DNA of 64,000 nt from Moheibacter sp. (GTDB lineage Bacteria; Bacteroidota; Bacteroidia; Flavobacteriales; Weeksellaceae): NCBI GenBank assembly GCA_035515075.1, contig DATJBZ010000012.1:2360-66359 (forward strand), in the 5' to 3' direction. The stretch's first letter is position 1. The number at the start of each line of letters is the position of its first letter. Position numbers and translations under genes: made by a program. The notes under the pieces were generated by a model that did no database searches, had not been told where the DNA came from, and saw only the letters and a program-made list of their open reading frames with translations. This document shows positions 1-9,286 of this stretch, one piece after another.

Positions 1-1229
1 ATTTAGATGGTTTCCAATACGCAGGCAACCAATTGCAGTTTTTCCCAACAGCAGAAGGCTATGTCAAAGCAACACCTACAGACAGAACCAAAACAAACTA
101 TCATTTTAATTACATCTACAACTATACCGATCATTTGGGCAACGTAAGACTAAGCTACACCTTGGATCCGCAAGCTGGAACGCTACAAATCGTAGATGAG
201 AACCACTACTACCCTTTTGGCTTACGGCACGAAACCCACTACCCATCAGGAAACAAAAAAGACTTTAGAACAAACATAGGAGATGTTGGTTTTGAACCTG
301 TAAATTTGGTATTGGTCACCAGTACAGAATATAATTATAAGTATAATGGATTTGAGTATCAAGATGAGTTGGATTTGAATTGGTACGACTACCAAGCAAG
401 AAACTACGACCCAGCAATTGGTAGATGGATGAACATCGACCCACTGGCAGAAATGAGTAGAAAGACATCGCCTTATGTATATACACTCAACAACCCTGTT
501 TTCTTCATCGACCCAGATGGGATGATGGCAGAAGCAAGTAGTGATAAATCAGGGAGTGACTCTAACAATTCAAGTTCTGGTGAAAATCAGATAAGCTTAG
601 GTATTGCAGGAATAAAATTGGACTTGAATCAAAAAGTAGGTGCTGTTAGCCATGTTAATTATGATGGTGGAAATAGTGGAGATAGTAGCAATGATAAGTC
701 TTCTGAGAAAAATGAAGCAGACTCACCTGCGGAAAGTCCAGATAATGGGGATCCCGAAAAAGAAACACAAAAATCTACAAATTCTGAACGTAATCCTTAT
801 AGCCCACCTCGAGCCGATGGTATTAAGTTTGGAATAGGTTTCTCTTTTAATGGTGTTTTTTTTCGTGGAGATTTCTCATTAGCAATTGCTATTACAGGTG
901 GTGAAATAGGGCTAGTTCCAGAATACTCTGGAGGAATGGGATTAACACTTGCTCTACCTGGAGTAGGGGTAGAAGGTTTTCTTACTCACTATAGTATATC
1001 AGAAGGAGGTAATTTCATGCAATCGATTAGTGGTGAGGCTACCAACACAACTACTAATGCTGTAATTGGCAGCTATACTCATTCTTCTTCTTCAAATGCA
1101 AATGGTTATACTATTGGAATAGGACCAAAAGTTTTTGGCTCAAACTTTGGTTTCAGTCAAACAACGTCTAAATCAGCAGTAATATCAACTTCAGGAATTT
1201 ATGATTTTAATGGTAAGAAGAAAAATTAA
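1..1229 (+). CDS. Rhs/YD-repeat polymorphic toxin, C-terminal end (5' part lies upstream of the window) with a Gly/Ser-rich variable C-terminal domain
   Basis: The reading frame is open from position 3 (LDGFQYAGNQLQFFPTAEGY...). It carries the Rhs core-end signature YDPAIGRWMNIDP...NNPVFFIDPDGMM (ends ~527), followed by an unrelated ~230 aa tail. The core is paralogous to 2618-3156 and 4437-4766. Confidence 0.85.
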   Translation, partial: LDGFQYAGNQLQFFPTAEGYVKATPTDRTKTNYHFNYIYNYTDHLGNVRLSYTLDPQAGTLQIVDENHYYPFGLRHETHYPSGNKKDFRTNIGDVGFEPVNLVLVTSTEYNYKYNGFEYQDELDLNWYDYQARNYDPAIGRWMNIDPLAEMSRKTSPYVYTLNNPVFFIDPDGMMAEASSDKSGSDSNNSSSGENQISLGIAGIKLDLNQKVGAVSHVNYDGGNSGDSSNDKSSEKNEADSPAESPDNGDPEKETQKSTNSERNPYSPPRADGIKFGIGFSFNGVFFRGDFSLAIAITGGEIGLVPEYSGGMGLTLALPGVGVEGFLTHYSISEGGNFMQSISGEATNTTTNAVIGSYTHSSSSNANGYTIGIGPKVFGSNFGFSQTTSKSAVISTSGIYDFNGKKKN

Positions 1230-1239
1230 GTATTTCATC

Positions 1240-1602
1240 ATGATTTTAATAATCTTTCACATCATATCATGTGATCAAGATTGCAATAAGTATAGAGATT
1301 TATTTATTGAGAACGAGTGTAATGTAATTTTATCTAAAGATTATACTGATAATCAACCAGAGTTCATGATTGTAAAAGGAATTAATCCAAATACAAAAGA
1401 AAAATGCAAATGTCAAGATAATGTAAAAAATTGGTATTTTTATAATGGTTATATGGAAAAAGGAGATACTTTAGTAAAAAGGAAAGGGGATGATTTTTAT
1501 AAAATTCATAAAAAAGATACAATCTTTATTATTTATTATGGAGAATGCAATAATTATAATCAGTACGTAAGAATAAACAATAATCCACCAAAAACAAATT
1601 AA
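1240..1602 (+). CDS. small Cys-rich lipoprotein, candidate immunity protein for toxin domain 1
   Basis: The ATG at 1240 lies 11 nt after the rhs stop. Short signal peptide with lipobox-like HIISC. The position directly downstream of an Rhs toxin tip fits an immunity gene. Confidence 0.45.
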   Translation: MILIIFHIISCDQDCNKYRDLFIENECNVILSKDYTDNQPEFMIVKGINPNTKEKCKCQDNVKNWYFYNGYMEKGDTLVKRKGDDFYKIHKKDTIFIIYYGECNNYNQYVRINNNPPKTN

Positions 1603-1607
1603 ATAAT

Positions 1608-2036
1608 ATGAAGAAAGTACCAATAATTTTCTTTTTTTTAATTTTTGTATCATGCAAATTAAATTCAGAAAATGAAAACTTATTAGAAAATAAAAAAGAA
1701 GGAGAAAAAATCATGAATATTTTTTTTAATAATATTGTTTCTAATAATTTCAAGGAGAATAAAAAATTTCTAAGTAAGTCATTTTTAGATTATCCAGGAA
1801 CTAAGCAATTTGAAAAAGATCAAAATCTCATAAAAATAAAATTAGGAAATATAACAAATATTAATTTATTGTATTCAGAAACTACAATTTCAACTAAGAT
1901 AAATTCATTTCCTGAATATATTTATGAATACAATATTGAAAGAGAAAAGAAAAACTCTATAGAAACATATTTTTTGATAAAAGAAAATGACTCATTAAAA
2001 ATTAAAGATTATAAAATAGAATATTTAAACGAATGA
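1608..2036 (+). CDS. small lipoprotein, possible second or orphan immunity protein
   Basis: Signal peptide MKKVPIIFFFLIFVSC (lipobox), very AT-rich, tightly packed after the previous ORF. Confidence 0.4.
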   Translation: MKKVPIIFFFLIFVSCKLNSENENLLENKKEGEKIMNIFFNNIVSNNFKENKKFLSKSFLDYPGTKQFEKDQNLIKIKLGNITNINLLYSETTISTKINSFPEYIYEYNIEREKKNSIETYFLIKENDSLKIKDYKIEYLNE

Positions 2037-2055
2037 AATAGGCAATGCACCCAAC

Positions 2056-2256
2056 TTAGTGACACAGTAAAATCAAGGATGTAACCAATTGATTTTGAGT
2101 AAGGATTAAAACAAAACCAAGAATTATAAGAGCTGGTATTTCCTGCTCTTTGTATTTTTGAATACTTTAAATCGTTTAAAATGGAGAAAAATAAAAGTTC
2201 GTGTATCAGATTGAGGTGTTTTCATTGAAAACAAAACATTCGTTATATTTATCCAT
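2056..2256. repeat. cassette-junction element, copy A (201 bp)
   Basis: Aligns without gaps and at roughly 90% identity by eye with 4102-4302. Both copies sit between an immunity ORF and the next orphan rhs cassette. Confidence 0.85.
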
Positions 2257-2268
2257 TCAATTCAAGAT

Positions 2269-3822
2269 TTGACAACAAGACAATACACATATCAGTTTAT
2301 TCCTACTCACGCAACAGTGAATGGCTCTGATGGCTTCAAAGACGGAAATACCAACCCCAATTTGAATGATTATGAGTACGATGACAATGATTTTCGAGTA
2401 AAAAAGATTGAGAATCTTTTTTGCGAAGAAAGCGAGCGTAGCTCAATGATTTTGGACCGAAAAAAAGGCATCGAAAGCATCACTTACAACCACCTGAACT
2501 TACCTACTAAAGTTAGTTGGTCAAACACTAAATACATTAATTATCAGTACAATGCCGCAGGGCAAAAAGTATCCAAAACAGTTAGAATAGATGCTGATTC
2601 CATCAAAGTTGTAGATTATTTAGATGGGTTTCAATACACAGGGAACCAATTGCAGTTTTTCCCAACAGCAGAAGGCTATGTCAGAGTAAATGCTGATAAA
2701 CTCCAATCATTTCGTACGTATAACTATGTCTATAACCACACCGATCATCTTGGAAACGTACGATTGTCCTACTCCAAAGACCCAAAAACAGGAGAATTGG
2801 AAATTTTGGAAGAAAACCACTACTACCCTTTCGGATTGAAACATGGAGTGTATACGGCTGCTACTTTGAAAGACTTTAGAATAGATGAAATGGGAACAGA
2901 TGCTGTGCCTGGAGGAGGCATGGGAGAGGTTGCTTTGATCAATGTCACTAAAACGGAGTATAATTATAAGTACAATGGGAAGGAGCTTCAAGATGAGTTG
3001 GGGCTTGGGTTGTACGATTATGGATGGAGAAATTACGATCCCGCAATTGGAAGATGGGTCGTTATTGATCCTAAAGCTGAAATAGGGAGACCCTATTCTC
3101 CGTATAATTATGCCTTAAATAATCCTGTTTATTTTATTGATCCTGATGGAATGATGTCTGTAAGTAGCATTCAAGAAATGTGGGATAATACAACATCTTC
3201 AAGCACATGGGTTAATAATGGAGATGGTACTTATGAAGGAGGAGAAAATGAATCGGATTCAGTTGAAAATGGACAATCGGAAGATTGTTGTCCTAATGGA
3301 AAAGGTTTCTTGAAAGGTTTAGCAAATTCTGTTATTGACATAACAATAACAAGTAATCCAATAACAAGTTTAATTGAACAAGGTGGACAATTAATTAATT
3401 CCGATTTTGAACTTATACCTAGATTTAGTGTGGAAGAGGGTGAGCAAGTTGGATATTATGCTGGTATTATTTTATTTGCGATAGTAGAACCTTCGCCTGG
3501 CGGAGAAATAAATGCTATAAAAATATTAATTAAGGGAGGAAAAGCCACTAAAATTACCAAGGCAGTAAATTCTAATTTACAACATGCGATTGACCAAAGT
3601 CTACTTCCTGATAGAAACGTTTTTAAAAATGCAGATGAGGCTAGAACAGCTCTTGAAGCTCTAACAAAACAGGTGGGAACTAATAAACTTCCTGCTGGAA
3701 CAATTATTGACCCTTCTAAAACAGATAGAATATTAGTTCCTGTCGGAAATAACGGTATGGCGGTCTATCAAATAGGTAGTAATGGTACAGCTAAAATAAA
3801 AACAGTATTAGTAGCAAAATAA
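2269..3822 (+). CDS. orphan Rhs C-terminal cassette 2 (about 295 aa of Rhs core tail plus a distinct C-terminal toxin domain)
   Basis: Contains ITYNHLNLP, LDGFQYTGNQLQFFPTAEGY and YDPAIGRWVVIDP...FIDPDGMM (ends 3156), then a unique ~220 aa tail. The only start is TTG; there is no in-frame ATG near the 5' end. Confidence 0.75.
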   Translation: MTTRQYTYQFIPTHATVNGSDGFKDGNTNPNLNDYEYDDNDFRVKKIENLFCEESERSSMILDRKKGIESITYNHLNLPTKVSWSNTKYINYQYNAAGQKVSKTVRIDADSIKVVDYLDGFQYTGNQLQFFPTAEGYVRVNADKLQSFRTYNYVYNHTDHLGNVRLSYSKDPKTGELEILEENHYYPFGLKHGVYTAATLKDFRIDEMGTDAVPGGGMGEVALINVTKTEYNYKYNGKELQDELGLGLYDYGWRNYDPAIGRWVVIDPKAEIGRPYSPYNYALNNPVYFIDPDGMMSVSSIQEMWDNTTSSSTWVNNGDGTYEGGENESDSVENGQSEDCCPNGKGFLKGLANSVIDITITSNPITSLIEQGGQLINSDFELIPRFSVEEGEQVGYYAGIILFAIVEPSPGGEINAIKILIKGGKATKITKAVNSNLQHAIDQSLLPDRNVFKNADEARTALEALTKQVGTNKLPAGTIIDPSKTDRILVPVGNNGMAVYQIGSNGTAKIKTVLVAK

Positions 3823-3827
3823 TATTT

Positions 3828-4079
3828 ATGTCAGAAAAAATAATAACATTAACAAGAGGGGTTGAAATCAATAAAATAACTTTAGAGGAAGATGCTATAG
3901 CACATATAGAGATGAGAGAAGAAAGTATTTTATTAGTTAAAAGAAAAAGCAATAAACATTCTACTTTTAAAAAGCAAGTATGGCTATCTGACTTAATCGA
4001 AAATTACATTGGGCCAAGTATCTATTTAGATTTAGATGAAAAAAATAATTTGATAAGAATTGAAATTTTAGAAGATTAA
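3828..4079 (+). CDS. small cytoplasmic protein, candidate immunity for toxin 2 (DUF2283-like C-terminus)
   Basis: 83 aa, starts 6 nt after the cassette 2 stop. The C-terminal IYLDLDEKNNLIRIEILED resembles the DUF2283 signature as I remember it. Confidence 0.5.
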   Translation: MSEKIITLTRGVEINKITLEEDAIAHIEMREESILLVKRKSNKHSTFKKQVWLSDLIENYIGPSIYLDLDEKNNLIRIEILED

Positions 4080-4101
4080 AGATAATGGTAATGTATCAAA
4101 G

Positions 4102-4302
4102 TTAGTGACGCAATAAAGTCAAGGGTGTAACCAATTGATTTTGAGTAAAAGTTAAAATAAAACCAAGATTTATAAGGGCAGGGATTTCCTACGTTTTGTA
4201 TTTTTGAATGCTTTCAATCGTTTAAAATGGAGAAAAATAAGAGTTCGTGTATCAGAGTGAGATATTTTCATTGAAAACAAAACATTCGTTATATTTATCC
4301 AT
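4102..4302. repeat. cassette-junction element, copy B (201 bp)
   Basis: Paralogue of 2056-2256 in the same position relative to the next orphan cassette. Confidence 0.85.
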
Positions 4303-4305
4303 CTT

Positions 4306-5478
4306 ATGAATGATTTAACAAAACAGCAAAACCACAGCACTACGTGCGCAAATTTCGATTTGGAAATACTCAATTTCCAAAATCTCAGCACTACGTGCGC
4401 AAATTTCGATTTGGAAATACTCAATTTCCAAAATCTCATTTGTCCTTTCGGATTGAAGCATGGGGTGTATACGGCTGCTACTTTGAAAGACTTCAGAATA
4501 GATGAAATGGGAACAGATGCTATTCCTGGAGGAGGCATGAGAGAGGTAGCTTTGATCAATGTCACTAAAACGGAGTATCAGTATAAGTACAACGGTAAAG
4601 AGCTTCAGGATGAGTTGGGGCTTAACATGTATGACATGGACATGAGGCAGTATGACCCTGCCATTGCGAGGTGGGTGGTGCAAGATCCTGTTACGCATTT
4701 TGATTTTTCACCATATAATGCTTTTGACAACGATCCTGTTTTCTGGGCAGATCCAAGTGGAGCAGATGCTACTTCTTTAATACAAGATATTTGGAATAAA
4801 TCTAATGCGAATGAAAATACATTATGGTTAAATAATAATAATGGAACTTTTTTGGGAAGTAATGGAAAATCAGCTGATTGCGACGTTTGCACAACTTCTA
4901 CATCAAAACTGACTCATACTTTTAGTCCTGAAGGGTTCAATTATAAAAATAAAGAAGGGGAAAGAGGAGATGCAAATGACGGTAGTGATATTATAGAGTA
5001 TAAAGTTCAAGTTGTTACTAAAAACGAAAAGGGAATGGTAACATCTTCTGTTCTTATAACATATTTTTTCTCTGTTAATCGAGGTGGTTCTCATGAAAAT
5101 ATAGTTCCAGGAACAATGTATATAATGGGGGTTTATGATCCTGTTAATGTCTCATTTAATATAGATAATCCAGTCACCCCCTATGAGAAAGAATTAGCTG
5201 AATACATATCATATGTATCAAGTTATAGTAAAAAATACAATAGTAGTATTTTAGACGAAATAGCTACATACAATTATTATCTAGAAAAAAATAAAGAAGG
5301 GCCGTATAAAACTCAAGATATGATAAATAAAGTAAGTTCTGCTGCTAAATTGTTCGGTAAGCACGGCAGGATGGTGGGAGGTGCAGGAAATTTTATCAAT
5401 ACGATATTAAAAAACCAAAATCAATCCTCTAATCTTCATGGTGTAAAAGTAGGAATAGTTAATGAAAATAAACTTTAA
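4306..5478 (+). CDS. orphan Rhs C-terminal cassette 3 (short Rhs core tail plus a third distinct toxin domain)
   Basis: ATG start. 4437-4620 is ~90% identical at the DNA level to 2826-3009 (PFGLKHGVYTAATLKDFRIDEMGTD...). Core end is YDPAIARWVVQDP...FWADPSGAD (~4766), followed by a unique ~235 aa tail. Confidence 0.7.
   Translation: MNDLTKQQNHSTTCANFDLEILNFQNLSTTCANFDLEILNFQNLICPFGLKHGVYTAATLKDFRIDEMGTDAIPGGGMREVALINVTKTEYQYKYNGKELQDELGLNMYDMDMRQYDPAIARWVVQDPVTHFDFSPYNAFDNDPVFWADPSGADATSLIQDIWNKSNANENTLWLNNNNGTFLGSNGKSADCDVCTTSTSKLTHTFSPEGFNYKNKEGERGDANDGSDIIEYKVQVVTKNEKGMVTSSVLITYFFSVNRGGSHENIVPGTMYIMGVYDPVNVSFNIDNPVTPYEKELAEYISYVSSYSKKYNSSILDEIATYNYYLEKNKEGPYKTQDMINKVSSAAKLFGKHGRMVGGAGNFINTILKNQNQSSNLHGVKVGIVNENKL
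4335..4436. repeat. perfect 51-bp tandem duplication (2 copies), each copy carrying an 8-bp inverted repeat
   Basis: cagcactacgtgcgcaaatttcgatttggaaatactcaatttccaaaatct occurs twice back to back. Inner hairpin is TTGGAAAT-actca-ATTTCCAA. In frame it gives STTCANFDLEILNFQNL twice. Confidence 0.95.
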
Positions 5479-5483
5479 TAATT

Positions 5484-6026
5484 ATGAAGAAAAGTACAAA
5501 TTTGATAAAGATTTTATGGACAATTCTATTCATTTGCACTCTTTTATTTTTTTATTTTTCCAACGTTAATGATTTATATTTTCAAGAAGATATCATTAAT
5601 TTTGAAAATAGAATAAAGAACATTAAATTTCTATTTTATATAGTAGTTCCATTTATTTACATTATAGTATTGCTATTGATTGATTACAAAGACATTTTTA
5701 AAAAAAATAATTTTGTTTTTTATTTAGTTGTATTTATAATTTTATTTTTTCTATCACATAAATCCATTTTAAATGGATGTTTAATTCTAAATAAAAAATT
5801 TACTACTACAGAAAAAATTGAAAGAAAACATTACTTTAAAATCTATAATGAAAAATTACTATTATATGATCAATTTGCTTACTTAAAAGAATTTAATTTT
5901 CCAGAAAATGTTGATATGATTAAGTTAGAAAAATCTTCATCTTGTTTAGTTATGTTTAAAGTAGGTTATTTTGGCATTCCATTTAACCCTATAATAACTT
6001 CCTTAATACCAAAATCAACAATGTGA
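5484..6026 (+). CDS. polytopic membrane protein, candidate immunity for toxin 3
   Basis: 180 aa, starts 6 nt after the cassette 3 stop. Three to four hydrophobic helices visible (ILWTILFICTLLFFYF, FLFYIVVPFIYIIVLLLI, FVFYLVVFIILFFL). Confidence 0.45.
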   Translation: MKKSTNLIKILWTILFICTLLFFYFSNVNDLYFQEDIINFENRIKNIKFLFYIVVPFIYIIVLLLIDYKDIFKKNNFVFYLVVFIILFFLSHKSILNGCLILNKKFTTTEKIERKHYFKIYNEKLLLYDQFAYLKEFNFPENVDMIKLEKSSSCLVMFKVGYFGIPFNPIITSLIPKSTM

Positions 6027-6193
6027 ATGCGTCGATTGCATACATAGACACAGCCCCAAACCCAGGTAATAATTATTGGAACAATGATTTATTCTCGTTC
6101 AAAATCAATTACAATACGATAGAAAATGAACTCAATGCCAAGACAGAAGCATTGTACAACGGCAACATCGCTCAGACCTTTTGGCGAACAGTA
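6023..6193 (+). pseudogene. Rhs core fragment (about 57 codons) truncated by IS insertion
   Basis: Translates to VNASIAYIDTAPNPGNNYWNNDLFSFKINYNTIENELNAKTEALYNGNIAQTFWRTV*, a YD-repeat-like block (LYNGNI..TFW). It stops at the left end of the IS remnant. Confidence 0.55.
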
Positions 6194-6251
6194 TAATACC
6201 TCGACAAATTAGTACCAGTGTTTAAGTTGAAAATTTTATTAATTTTAAACA

Positions 6252-6440
6252 ATGGAAAACATGAAAAGAACACGCAGGAAATTTAGCAGTGAATTTAAAT
6301 CACAGGTAGCCATAGAGGCTTTAAAAGAACGTTATACACTCACCGAACTAGCACAGAAGTTTGAGCTTCATCCCAATCAGATCAGCCAATGGAAGCAGGA
6401 GTTTTTGGAGCGTAGCAAGAACGTTTCTGGCGTTCCATAA
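6252..6440 (+). pseudogene. IS3-family transposase OrfA N-terminal HTH fragment
   Basis: RRKFSSEFKSQVAIEALKERYTLTELAQKFELHPNQISQWKQEFLE is the typical IS3/IS911-type HTH. The ORF ends prematurely. Confidence 0.7.
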
Positions 6441-6583
6441 AGTATAGACATATCTATTTAAACCCCGCCAACGATGGAATCGAGTTATTCAGAGGAATAA
6501 TGATTTGGATCGATAAGTACAATAATAGAAAACACCAAGGAACAGGTCAAAAACCTATTTCAAGATACCAAAAAGCAGCATAA
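6440..6583 (+). pseudogene. IS3-family transposase OrfB (integrase core) C-terminal fragment
   Basis: KYRHIYLNPANDGIELFRGIMIWIDKYNNRKHQGTGQKPISRYQKAA* matches the usual rve C-terminal tail (W...YN..R.H..L.g.tP). It lies in a different frame from the orfA piece. Confidence 0.55.
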
Positions 6584-7077: not shown

Positions 7078-7083
7078 ACTTAG

Positions 7084-7156
<73 letters not shown>

Positions 7157-7199: not shown

Positions 7200-8348
7200 T
7201 TATATTGGAATGGGTGGGTTATTTTCTATGAAATTCACCACAAGTTCTGGATCATCAGTGAGATAGAGTAGTTCTTTATATTTTCTGCCTACGGCCAATT
7301 GATGCAAAACGGAGTACAAAGCGGTGTCTTCGGTGTATCTTTTCTTGCCTAGAAAGATCATTGGACTGTAAAAGCCGAAAGTGCCATAGTGGTTTTGTGC
7401 AGCTTCTTGGAAAATTTCTTGGGTAGTTCCTGCGCTGCCTGGCGCATAAACAATTCCATACAGACAAATCGCCAAAAGAATGTCCTCACGGATGCTGTTG
7501 GAAAAGTACTTGGCAATGTCACAAGCAAACAAATTGGAAGGTTCATGACCGTAAAACCAAGTCGGAATCGCCAAGCTGGAGGTGCCATCTGGAAACTTTT
7601 CTAAGACGGTCAATGATTGTTCGAAATAATTGGACACCAAATAATCCATTTGGTCCTCGCTGTCATACTTTAAATCGCTTAAAAGTAAAATGGCATCCAC
7701 CAAGTCCTCTTCTGAGTATTTGGCCATGTAAGCGCCTAAATTTGCTGCCTCCATGATGCCAGGTCCACCACCAGTTGCGATATAATAATCTTTTTGCGCC
7801 AACTCTTGCGCAGCCAAGGCCACTTTGACATAATATTCCGAACCTCTTTTTGTGGCATGTCCGCCCATGAAGCCGACGATTTTCTTTTGTGTCATGCCGA
7901 AATCATCGTATTCGATCAAGTTTCTCAACGCAACATCAATCGAATAATCATGGATCCGCTGTGCCATGGCTTCTTCCATCGAAGGCGTGTACTTGTTTTT
8001 CATGAAATGTTGGTAAATCTTGAAATCGGGGCTTTCCGCCATGTTGGTTAAATTCTCGCCCATCAATTCTTGCCAAGTGTACAATTCTGTTCGATGGGGT
8101 TGAAAAGGCAATCCCGCAAATTTTGGGTAGACCAAAGCACCATTGCTGATCAAGTAAATCGCTTCTTCTTTGTGGAAATCACAGCCTAAGAAAGTGGTGG
8201 ATTGAATATTGTATTTTGTCCAATCAACTTGTAGAGGAATGAAATCGATGTTTTGGAAAACTTTTCCTTTCAAATTGAGGGTGTGTGCAACCAGTTCATT
8301 CCATTCTTGGGTTGAACGGATCAAGTTGATAAATCTTCTTAATGACAT
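7200..8348 (-). CDS. LOG-family (lysine-decarboxylase-like / nucleotide nucleosidase-like) protein with an N-terminal extension
   Basis: GGGPGIMEA and PGSAGTTQEIFQ (PGGxGTxxE-like) motifs. The start was moved to MSLRRF (8348) to avoid overlap with corA. Confidence 0.7.
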   Translation of the reverse strand: MSLRRFINLIRSTQEWNELVAHTLNLKGKVFQNIDFIPLQVDWTKYNIQSTTFLGCDFHKEEAIYLISNGALVYPKFAGLPFQPHRTELYTWQELMGENLTNMAESPDFKIYQHFMKNKYTPSMEEAMAQRIHDYSIDVALRNLIEYDDFGMTQKKIVGFMGGHATKRGSEYYVKVALAAQELAQKDYYIATGGGPGIMEAANLGAYMAKYSEEDLVDAILLLSDLKYDSEDQMDYLVSNYFEQSLTVLEKFPDGTSSLAIPTWFYGHEPSNLFACDIAKYFSNSIREDILLAICLYGIVYAPGSAGTTQEIFQEAAQNHYGTFGFYSPMIFLGKKRYTEDTALYSVLHQLAVGRKYKELLYLTDDPELVVNFIENNPPIPI

Positions 8349-8389
8349 ATTGAATTGAATAAATTTAGTATAAAAATAATTAATTGAAC

Positions 8390-9286
8390 CTACAGAAATC
8401 TTTTGCGTTTGAACCAAAAGAAAATGACCAAAAAGGTAATAATCATGATGACTGACAAAAGATAAAATCCTGCTTTTTCATTCAAACCGGGTAGGTTATC
8501 AAAATTCATCCCATAAAAACCGGTGATGAAAGTCAATGGCAAGAAAAAGGCGGAAAAAACCGTCAAAACCTTCATGATTTCGTTGGAACGTTGGTCCGAA
8601 AAAGACAAAGTCAAAGTAAACAAACTGTGGATGTCCTCGGTATTTTGGTTGTGCAAATGCAGCAATTTCAAATTCATTTCATGTAAATTCTTGAATGAAG
8701 CTGGATTTTTGGTGAATACTTTGAATTCGTTGAGCACATCACGGGTGAGCATTAGCAATTTGCTGCAAGCGGAAGATTCGCGTTTGAGTTGGTATAGTTT
8801 TTTTAAATTGATTTTCAATTCTTTTTCGTTGGCAAACAAAGATTCTTCATATAACTCAATTTGTTTGGCGATTCTTTCTGAAGGAGCTTGGTAGCTGAAG
8901 AGCGCGTGTTCAGCAATTTTATAAAACAATTGATTGCTTGACCCATTTGATTTCAAAGCCAATTCATTTTTGATCTCTTGCCAAAAGGGCACTTTTTTTT
9001 GATGGATGGTAATCAGGAAATCTTTTCCTTTGAAAATGCCGATTTTATGGCTAAACTCTCGAATTTGGTTGGTGTTGGATCTAGGATTTTTGACATAAAA
9101 CCGCAACAAGATGAAGTCAAAATTTTCTGAATGTTCAAATTTGGGCAAATGACCAATTTCGTTGGCATCGTCCAAAGTATAGGCGGTTAAACCAAATTGT
9201 TCCCGGTATTTTCGGATGGTTTCCTCGCTGGGTTTTTCCAAATTGTACCAAGTGAATTGTTCGTTTTTAAAAAAGATTTCTTCCAT
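8390..9286 (-). CDS. corA: CorA-family divalent cation transporter
   Basis: C-terminal two TM helices with the FYGMNF (GMN) signature. Confidence 0.8.
   Translation of the reverse strand: MEEIFFKNEQFTWYNLEKPSEETIRKYREQFGLTAYTLDDANEIGHLPKFEHSENFDFILLRFYVKNPRSNTNQIREFSHKIGIFKGKDFLITIHQKKVPFWQEIKNELALKSNGSSNQLFYKIAEHALFSYQAPSERIAKQIELYEESLFANEKELKINLKKLYQLKRESSACSKLLMLTRDVLNEFKVFTKNPASFKNLHEMNLKLLHLHNQNTEDIHSLFTLTLSFSDQRSNEIMKVLTVFSAFFLPLTFITGFYGMNFDNLPGLNEKAGFYLLSVIMIITFLVIFFWFKRKRFL

Follow-up and report, generated by a model that had tools for sequence, protein, structure and literature searches.

We analysed a 64,000-nt stretch of chromosomal DNA from Moheibacter sp. (contig DATJBZ010000012.1, positions 2,360 to 66,359; hereafter the window, in whose own numbering all positions are given), which opens with a series of rhs gene ends, each followed by a C-terminal tip and by small open reading frames (ORFs). 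As can be seen from the ORF listing and its translation, three reading frames on the plus strand carry Rhs core tails (Table 1), and all three tails match the NCBIfam family TIGR03696 (RHS repeat-associated core) above its cut-off of 32.5 bits. Each tail has a DP pair ~22 residues upstream of its DPxG motif, which ends at nt 521 (DPDG, 510-521), 3150 (DPDG, 3139-3150) and 4761 (DPSG, 4750-4761), respectively. Rhs shell proteins release their C-terminal tip at DPxG. Here the tips, numbered 1 to 3 in the order of the locus, are 235, 223 and 238 aa long. An earlier note on this DNA had placed three Rhs tails at about 527, 3156 and 4766, each continuing into a C-terminal region of ~220-240 aa, in agreement with these measurements. 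The three-tail locus is real, and far beyond what chance would produce.

The first tail belongs to a gene that enters the window from outside, so that its upstream part, with the N-terminus, lies beyond the window. The second and third tails are 5'-truncated rhs pieces (294 aa and 109 aa) that lie 3' of another rhs tail, which is the architecture of orphan modules. The frame of fragment 2 is open only from nt 2269, at a TTG, and has no ATG start. In fragment 3 the similarity to the core begins at PFGLKHG (nt 4444), and its DNA is 76% identical to that of fragment 2. The LDGFQY..FFPTAEGY block (LDGFQY..GNQLQFFPTAEGY), of which three copies had been counted previously, occurs only twice, at nt 3 and 2620; it is absent from fragment 3, a stub of the core tail.

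Close behind the tips lie the small ORFs that had already been pointed out, namely two lipoprotein genes, a gene for an 83-aa protein and one for a membrane protein. The gaps in front of them are 10, 5, 5 and 5 nt, the first of which becomes an overlap of 29 nt with the ATG at 1201 as start. These candidate immunity genes are AT-rich, with a GC content of 18-25% against 39-44% in the rhs parts and 37% in the whole window. None of the three tips gave a match in Pfam, NCBIfam, PHROGs or the PDB sequences. We consider it likely that the array is the 3' part of an Rhs polymorphic toxin locus on a Flavobacteriales chromosome, composed of the gene bearing tip 1 and of two displaced cassettes, with tip 2 being a RelE/ParE-like toxin.

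Table 1. Features of the Rhs locus and of its downstream border (nt, window numbering).
Feature	Position	Strand	Evidence or remarks
rhs gene 3' end, core tail to DPDG	1..521	+	TIGR03696 E 7.8e-17; open at window start
Tip 1	522..1229	+	~95-aa Ser/Asp/Asn/Gly-rich low-complexity linker, then 138-aa domain
Candidate immunity gene 1a, lipoprotein	1201..1602 (alternative start 1240)	+	signal MVRRKIKYFIMILIIFHIISC, lipobox IISC; GC 23%
Candidate immunity gene 1b, lipoprotein	1608..2036	+	signal MKKVPIIFFFLIFVSC, lipobox FVSC; GC 18%
Spacer repeat D1a, IS1-family left end	2055..2290	+	includes first ~15 transposase codons (..IFEYFKSFKMEKNKSSCIRLRCFH, then stop)
Orphan rhs fragment 2, 294-aa core tail	2269..3150	+	TIGR03696 E 2e-17
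Tip 2	3151..3822	+	linker, poorly modelled ~80-aa middle, C-terminal ~90-aa toxin domain (nt ~3550-3819)
Candidate immunity gene 2, 83-aa acidic cytoplasmic DUF2283-like protein	3828..4079	+	no hydrophobic segment
Spacer repeat D1b, second IS1-family left-end remnant	4101..4336	+	
Two tandem 51-nt units, junction of D1b and third rhs stub	4327..4428	+	96% identical
Orphan rhs fragment 3, 109-aa core-tail stub, PFGL to DPSG	4438..4761	+	TIGR03696 E 2.2e-15
Tip 3	4762..5478	+	shared linker, then ~190-aa domain
Candidate immunity gene 3, 180-aa protein	5484..6026	+	three hydrophobic segments and ~85-aa soluble tail (hydropathy); GC 19%
Fourth rhs core fragment, a more upstream part of the core	6023..6196	+	tblastn; then cut off by IS3 remnant
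Internally deleted IS3-family remnant, OrfA N-terminus and OrfB C-terminal end	6252..6583	+	HTH_Tnp_1 E 4.5e-11
tRNA-Met gene bordering the locus	7083..7156	-	ARAGORN and Rfam
405-aa protein, adjoins the tRNA gene	7200-8417	-	weak SLOG cluster4 (LOG-like) match

A predicted RelE/ParE-like domain in tip 2

A word-indexed search, which covered 5.8 billion proteins, returned 11 homologues of tip 2, 10 of which have the toxin domain complete and at the C-terminus. Several have an Rhs tail or are annotated as Rhs, including proteins from a Weeksellaceae metagenome-assembled genome (MAG), Caballeronia temeraria and Pectobacterium. The family alignment shows the last ~90 aa to be the conserved unit; K, N-S, H, R, D, R, Y-Q and K are invariant in it, and the window domain retains every one of these residues. 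The proteobacterial homologues have the toxin domain directly after DPxGL. The ~80-aa middle region of the window protein, common to it and to one homologue (P0002) only, may be an entry or translocation region.

None of the 12 family members matched a toxin family of Pfam at E-values of up to 1, and a sequence-profile search of the PDB gave nothing relevant. An AlphaFold2 model of the toxin domain, built from the family alignment, had a pLDDT of 75-97 and consisted of a strand, two helices and three strands. When this model was compared with the PDB by Foldseek, the matches included the toxin YoeB (7v6w_E; probability 0.95, TM-score 0.61). Those with ~90 residues aligned were nearly all toxins of the RelE/ParE superfamily (probability 0.8-0.97, TM-score 0.5-0.6; all E-values at least 0.03), among them YafQ, HigB, ParE, HP0892 and an S. 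pneumoniae toxin–antitoxin (TA) toxin; Txp40 and a CdiA C-terminal (CT) domain were matched as well. Because the confident model resembles toxins of this superfamily, tip 2 probably has a BECR/RelE-type fold and is most likely an RNase. Tip 2 is new at the level of the sequence family, but it is a known kind of toxin. The earlier note had described all three tips as unrecognisable; indeed, no described Ntox/Tox profile matches any of them, whereas for tip 2 the fold class and the family of the immunity protein can be identified.

It is also conceivable that the domain is a ParE-like gyrase poison, or another non-nuclease toxin of the RelE/ParE fold, since ParE structures (8c24, 5cw7 and 7r5a) are among the Foldseek matches and score like YoeB, YafQ and HigB. 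However, the invariant His, Arg, Tyr and Lys of the alignment presumably resemble the catalytic sets of RelE, YoeB and YafQ. Furthermore, BECR-fold domains in polymorphic toxins are generally RNases (bioRxiv 10.64898/2026.08.28.747851). A non-nuclease activity of tip 2 thus appears improbable, and we continue to regard the domain as a putative RNase.

The protein encoded 5 nt behind tip 2 matches the Pfam family DUF2283 (PF10049) with an E-value of 2.3e-4 and 21.7 bits, below the 23-bit cut-off of that family. A PDB profile search with the family of this protein gave nothing relevant. Its match to TriTu was weak (E 0.006, 16.8 bits against a cut-off of 27 bits), and TreTu was not among the best 50 fold matches listed. 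The gene downstream of the toxin could be read in two homologue loci, in Pectobacterium and Rhizobium, and in both it is of the DUF2283 type and lies 8 nt away. In Pectobacterium versatile (locus L083) it encodes a 69-aa protein with a weak DUF2283 match, 35% identical to the window immunity protein. On the Rhizobium indigoferae plasmid NZ_CP140636.1 (L095, 193601-198861), a ~3200-aa hemagglutinin-repeat (CdiA-like) protein ends in a tip 2 domain that is 52% identical to that of the window (E 4e-23), and the DUF2283 protein that follows (from a RefSeq-derived record) is 22% identical to the window one. Toxin and DUF2283 protein hence occur together in two proteobacterial genera, and a divergent copy of the toxin-immunity pair is found in a Weeksellaceae MAG. 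As judged from these sequences, tip 2 is a mobile polymorphic-toxin module that recurs on Rhs proteins and on a CdiA-like one.

The end of the toxin gene (window 3691-3810) is 73% identical in nucleotides to Pectobacterium L083 698-817; because this is high for a comparison between phyla, it suggests horizontal transfer of the tip 2 module. Behind the tip 2-like cassette of Pectobacterium versatile (L083 1274-2252) we noted another cassette, which encodes a ribonuclease of the barnase family and has a barstar-like gene; this parallels the stacking in the window. In the Rhizobium locus, IS3 and IS110 transposases come after the DUF2283 gene.

Tips 1 and 3 and their candidate immunity proteins

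The 138-aa domain of tip 1 contains 18% Gly and no Cys, and hydropathy indicates no transmembrane helix. Database matches of this tip are identical fragments only, and identical copies of the first lipoprotein gene adjoin it in three related loci (L001-L003). Because tip 1 is paired with two candidate immunity lipoproteins, it is suggested to act in the periplasm or envelope, a compartment assigned from the neighbouring genes only. We considered two kinds of membrane toxin for tip 1. As a helical pore-former it was rejected, with a maximal 19-residue Kyte-Doolittle mean of 1.12, below 1.6; as a small beta-barrel or amphipathic beta toxin it found no support, the mean beta moment being 0.79 against 0.71 ± 0.10 in shuffles.

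A phmmer search with tip 3 against 1.84 billion representatives returned only the tip itself, a single distant relative (P0014; E 4.4e-7, with 26-31% identity along ~120 aa) and two matches confined to the linker. In its own locus (L094), P0014 comes after an Rhs DPSG and the same linker, in a shifted frame, and the protein behind it has 188 aa, with three transmembrane segments at the N-terminal end. This is the architecture of the 180-aa protein of the window, although the two proteins have no detectable sequence similarity. The pairing with a protein of three transmembrane segments suggests that tip 3 acts at or in the membrane, here too from the neighbouring gene only. An AlphaFold2 model of tip 3, built with its sole homologue, was unusable (pLDDT 40), and a function as helical pore-former was discarded, the maximal 19-residue Kyte-Doolittle mean being 0.91, under the same limit of 1.6.

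Neither tip 1 nor tip 3 had a match on plasmids by tblastn, or beyond the linker among 118 tips from related loci (see below). By sequence, then, tips 1 and 3 are near-orphans. It is possible, though we put it at clearly less than an even chance, that they found two new toxin families with new activities, one Gly-rich, Cys-free and neutralised by lipoproteins, the other soluble and neutralised by a protein of three transmembrane segments, both delivered by a Sec-exported Rhs shell of the Flavobacteriales that lacks PAAR.

The three tips had been described as mutually dissimilar. This holds for their domains, which are unrelated; however, a linker of ~30-45 aa that follows DPxG (S.IQ..W...W.NN..GT...C..C; window 3151-3290 and 4762-4900) is common to tips 2 and 3. 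The linker recurs in L020, L038, L050, L081 and L094 and in the proteins P0015 and P0016, with the consensus S.(I/F)I(Q/D)..W......W.NN..GT(F/Y)..., with C..C or CC frequently at the end. Some of the Rhs proteins of Flavobacteriales have it in front of toxin domains that are unrelated to each other, and it may be a pre-toxin module.

Insertion sequence remnants in the spacers

One spacer repeat (D1a or D1b) of ~200-235 nt precedes each orphan fragment, and the two repeats are 84-90% identical. One frame of the repeat reads IFEYFKSFKMEKNKSSCIRL.. and aligns with a piece in a Flavobacteriia MAG (L065) at 77% nucleotide identity. The repeat also aligns with the start of intact IS1 ORFs in two Flavobacterium MAGs (L047 and L049), the first codons being MEKNKSSCIR..; the L047 ORF matches DDE_Tnp_IS1 (E 1.4e-22) as well as HTH_Tnp_IS1 and Zn_ribbon_InsA. 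Given these alignments, the spacers are recognisable as left-end remnants of IS1-family insertion sequences (IS). In L065, L047 and L049 the IS1 copies, intact or partial, likewise lie just behind tip-plus-immunity cassettes, and weaker matches were found in L042 and L071. As a structured RNA the spacer was rejected (fold z-score -0.34, no Rfam match, hairpin not kept between the copies).

Both orphans have a conserved IS1 remnant of ~200 nt directly upstream, and one could imagine that the orphan cassettes are expressed from internal promoters, possibly IS1-derived, and act in the producer as TA-like modules. For Salmonella, orphan Rhs modules that behave as type II TA modules have been reported (PMC7043789). 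As a promoter or regulatory element, however, the spacer did not stand up: the Bacteroidetes-type promoter motif (TTTG..TAnnTTTG) was not found in the spacers, and sigma-70-like matches were no more frequent than in shuffled sequence. In addition, tips 1 and 3 are paired with exported or membrane immunity proteins, a misfit for an intracellular TA role. We regard such a function as very improbable, and favour cassettes displaced from an Rhs gene.

Two further irregularities are found in the orphans. Orphan 2 contains an in-frame 57-nt insertion (DFRVKKIENLFCEESERSS) at 2389-2445, which replaces the GN of a canonical YD.NGNM repeat and holds a strong hairpin (-17 kcal/mol). An insertion 85% identical to it is present in the Flavobacteriia MAG orphan (L065 1937-1995), and none of the full-length relatives examined has it. 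The 51-nt unit that is duplicated in front of orphan 3 has no further copies in the window or in related loci. The idea that the insertion and the duplication represent a dispersed mini-element was dropped, as no other copies were seen beyond the orthologous L065 insertion.

The fourth rhs fragment overlaps the stop codon of the gene for the membrane immunity protein. By tblastn, more than 50 related loci contain matches to it, which lie ~300-400 nt upstream of the tail. In the IS3 remnant that cuts it off, the assignment of 6500-6583 as the OrfB end is a reading by eye. Further downstream, beyond the tRNA gene, are housekeeping genes of the Bacteroidota (CorA, TyrRS, GroEL, SusC/D), an ordinary chromosomal setting.

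Related loci and cassette turnover

We collected related loci by scanning a genome collection with the tail of orphan 2, which returned Flavobacteriales at up to 61% identity. They span a Flavobacteriia MAG, Moheibacter, Weeksellaceae MAGs and many Flavobacterium species, the nearest relatives being Weeksellaceae MAGs. Stacked tails, with at least 2 reaching DPxG, were present in 35 of the 77 related loci (±10 kb around each). Arrays of orphan tips in RHS loci have already been reported for two Weeksellaceae, Ornithobacterium hominis and Bergeyella cardium (PMC13183296).

From the related loci we extracted 118 distinct tips of at least 100 aa and scanned each against Pfam. Only ~25 of the 118 match any Pfam family at E ≤ 1e-3, and ~80% match none, so that unrecognisable tips are the rule in Flavobacteriales Rhs loci. 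The matches were to Ntox44 (5 tips), Peptidase_M91 (4) and Toxin-JAB1 (3), and to families found once each (Ntox10, Amidase_3, NucA/NucB, Tox-REase-7, Ntox8, Tox-URI2, HINT and others).

Full-length Flavobacteriales relatives are ~1180-1400 aa long and start with a Sec-type signal peptide (seven loci: L007, L008, L010, L012, L015, L016 and L019). Over the ~120 N-terminal residues that were read, these proteins showed no PAAR- or VgrG-associated start. Because its relatives have a Sec signal peptide and no start of the PAAR/VgrG type was seen in them, export of the window Rhs protein is probably not dependent on a type VI secretion system (T6SS). No secretion-system genes were seen among the large ORFs of the window that were scanned.

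Comparison of cassettes among relatives, which the earlier note had proposed, revealed signs of exchange and turnover, as far as the sequences of these assemblies indicate. L002 and L003 have a tip 1 cut short at nt 803, which lies behind a D1-like piece. In L004-L006 (Weeksellaceae MAG, ~1750-3330), cassette 2 is present at 89% identity with its toxin frame broken before the toxin domain; the toxin end and the 83-aa immunity gene are partly duplicated (97.7% identity), and a second, divergent immunity paralogue of 69 aa is 35% identical. In L085-L088 (L085 10001-10252), a lone immunity gene 2 lies between accA and msrA at 95% nucleotide identity, with only the last 14 nt of the toxin gene left, which makes it an orphan immunity gene.

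These observations bear on whether the downstream cassettes are still of use as toxins. They could instead be decaying debris of IS rearrangement, with toxins that are non-functional and unrecoverable, and with selection on the immunity genes only, which would protect against neighbours. The IS1 remnants fused to both orphan fragments, the 51-nt duplication at the junction of D1b and the stub and the lack of an ATG in orphan 2 would fit such decay. So would the loci just described: where the tip 2 frame is broken (L004-L006), the immunity gene is 99% conserved, and elsewhere (L085-L088) it stands alone. However, both orphan tip frames of the window are intact, over 223 and 238 codons, and the tip 2 domain keeps all residues invariant in its family. 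The exact tracts speak on both sides: orphan 2 shares 40 nt with the first tail and the two orphans share 30 nt with one another, in contrast to 10 nt between the first tail and orphan 3. With these tracts, orphan 2 could plausibly recombine onto the first gene, whereas orphan 3 could hardly do so directly. In Salmonella, orphan modules have been shown to be recoverable (PMC3967940). On balance we find it rather unlikely that the cassettes are such debris, and return to a locus of displaced cassettes in the discussion below.

Discussion

The results can be brought together as follows. The rhs gene entering the window would encode a shell protein, from which tip 1 would be released at DPDG. Behind it lie two displaced cassettes, in which a tip and its putative immunity gene follow an rhs fragment truncated at the 5' end, and then a further rhs fragment. 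Judging from this anatomy, all these pieces probably remain from successive C-terminal displacement and from rearrangements around IS1 and IS3 elements. Tip 2 would cleave RNA in the cytoplasm of the target cell and would be blocked by the acidic DUF2283-like 83-aa protein, while tip 1 would act in the periplasm or envelope and tip 3 at or in the membrane. The spare cassettes would mainly provide immunity, with cassette 2 recombinable onto the main gene through the 40-nt identical tract.

Several points weigh against this interpretation. The earlier note had proposed a main gene and two orphan modules; the orphan architecture is borne out, but, as the gene of copy 1 leaves the window and its N-terminus lies outside, it is a candidate main gene only, with a putative export route. 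A convincing start codon is present in neither orphan, and orphan 3 has only the 10-nt exact tract in common with the first tail. No sequence profile ties tip 2 to RelE, ParE or any Ntox family, the Foldseek E-values are not significant, and the predicted fold would be compatible with ParE-type (gyrase) activity as well. For tip 1 the beta-amphipathic signal is no stronger than in shuffled sequence, and the compartments of tips 1 and 3 are read from neighbouring genes alone. More generally, the toxin and immunity roles are assigned from sequence, model and gene adjacency.

This locus extends a well-understood kind of system by three toxin-immunity pairs. Its most useful result is a small, cross-phylum, RelE/ParE-like toxin module with a DUF2283-like immunity partner, a pairing that gives a testable function to at least part of the uncharacterised DUF2283 family. 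In Flavobacteriales Rhs proteins about four fifths of the tips are unannotated, and the proteins appear to be exported by Sec without T6SS-linked N-terminal domains. This makes the clade a large unexplored reservoir of antibacterial domains, of which the window is one ordinary sample.

Arrays of main and orphan CT/immunity modules of the E. coli, Salmonella and Serratia type were reportedly attributed to C-terminal displacement by Jackson in 2009. The window locus resembles the Rhs arrays of these bacteria (Poole 2011, PMC3150448; Koskiniemi 2014, PMC3967940) and of Weeksellaceae (PMC13183296) in several respects: DPxG closes a conserved core tail, the tips bear no relation to one another, every tip has an immunity gene directly 3' of it, the orphans lack their 5' part, the immunity genes have a high AT content, short identity tracts are available for possible recombination and IS elements are associated. 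It differs from T6SS Rhs systems in the Sec-signal starts of its relatives, seen in place of PAAR/VgrG starts over the ~120 residues read, and in this it is nearer to the WapA type. It also differs from E. coli Rhs in that the orphans are preceded by IS1-family remnants and not by H-rpt/ISAs1. H-rpt/ISAs1 elements are those classically linked to E. coli Rhs. With IS1-family elements the spacers share the left end and the first codons, differing in that they comprise ~200-235 nt only, contain no transposase and are fused to rhs.

Tip 3 is like pore-forming colicins and the ionophore toxins of contact-dependent inhibition (PMC11630599) in having a polytopic immunity partner in the membrane, and unlike them in having no hydrophobic helical hairpin or bundle and no sequence similarity to them. 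Tip 2, in turn, stands apart from YoeB, YafQ, HigB, ParE and the BECR-type CdiA-CT/Ntox RNases in that it matches no Pfam RelE, ParE, YoeB or Ntox profile, in that its fold match falls short of statistical significance and in that its immunity protein is DUF2283-like, and not an antitoxin of the RelB, YefM or DinJ type. It is like them in its predicted beta-alpha-alpha-beta-beta-beta topology over ~90 aa, in its conserved basic, His and Tyr residues, in its small acidic putative inhibitor and in its use as a terminal module on Rhs and CdiA-like scaffolds.

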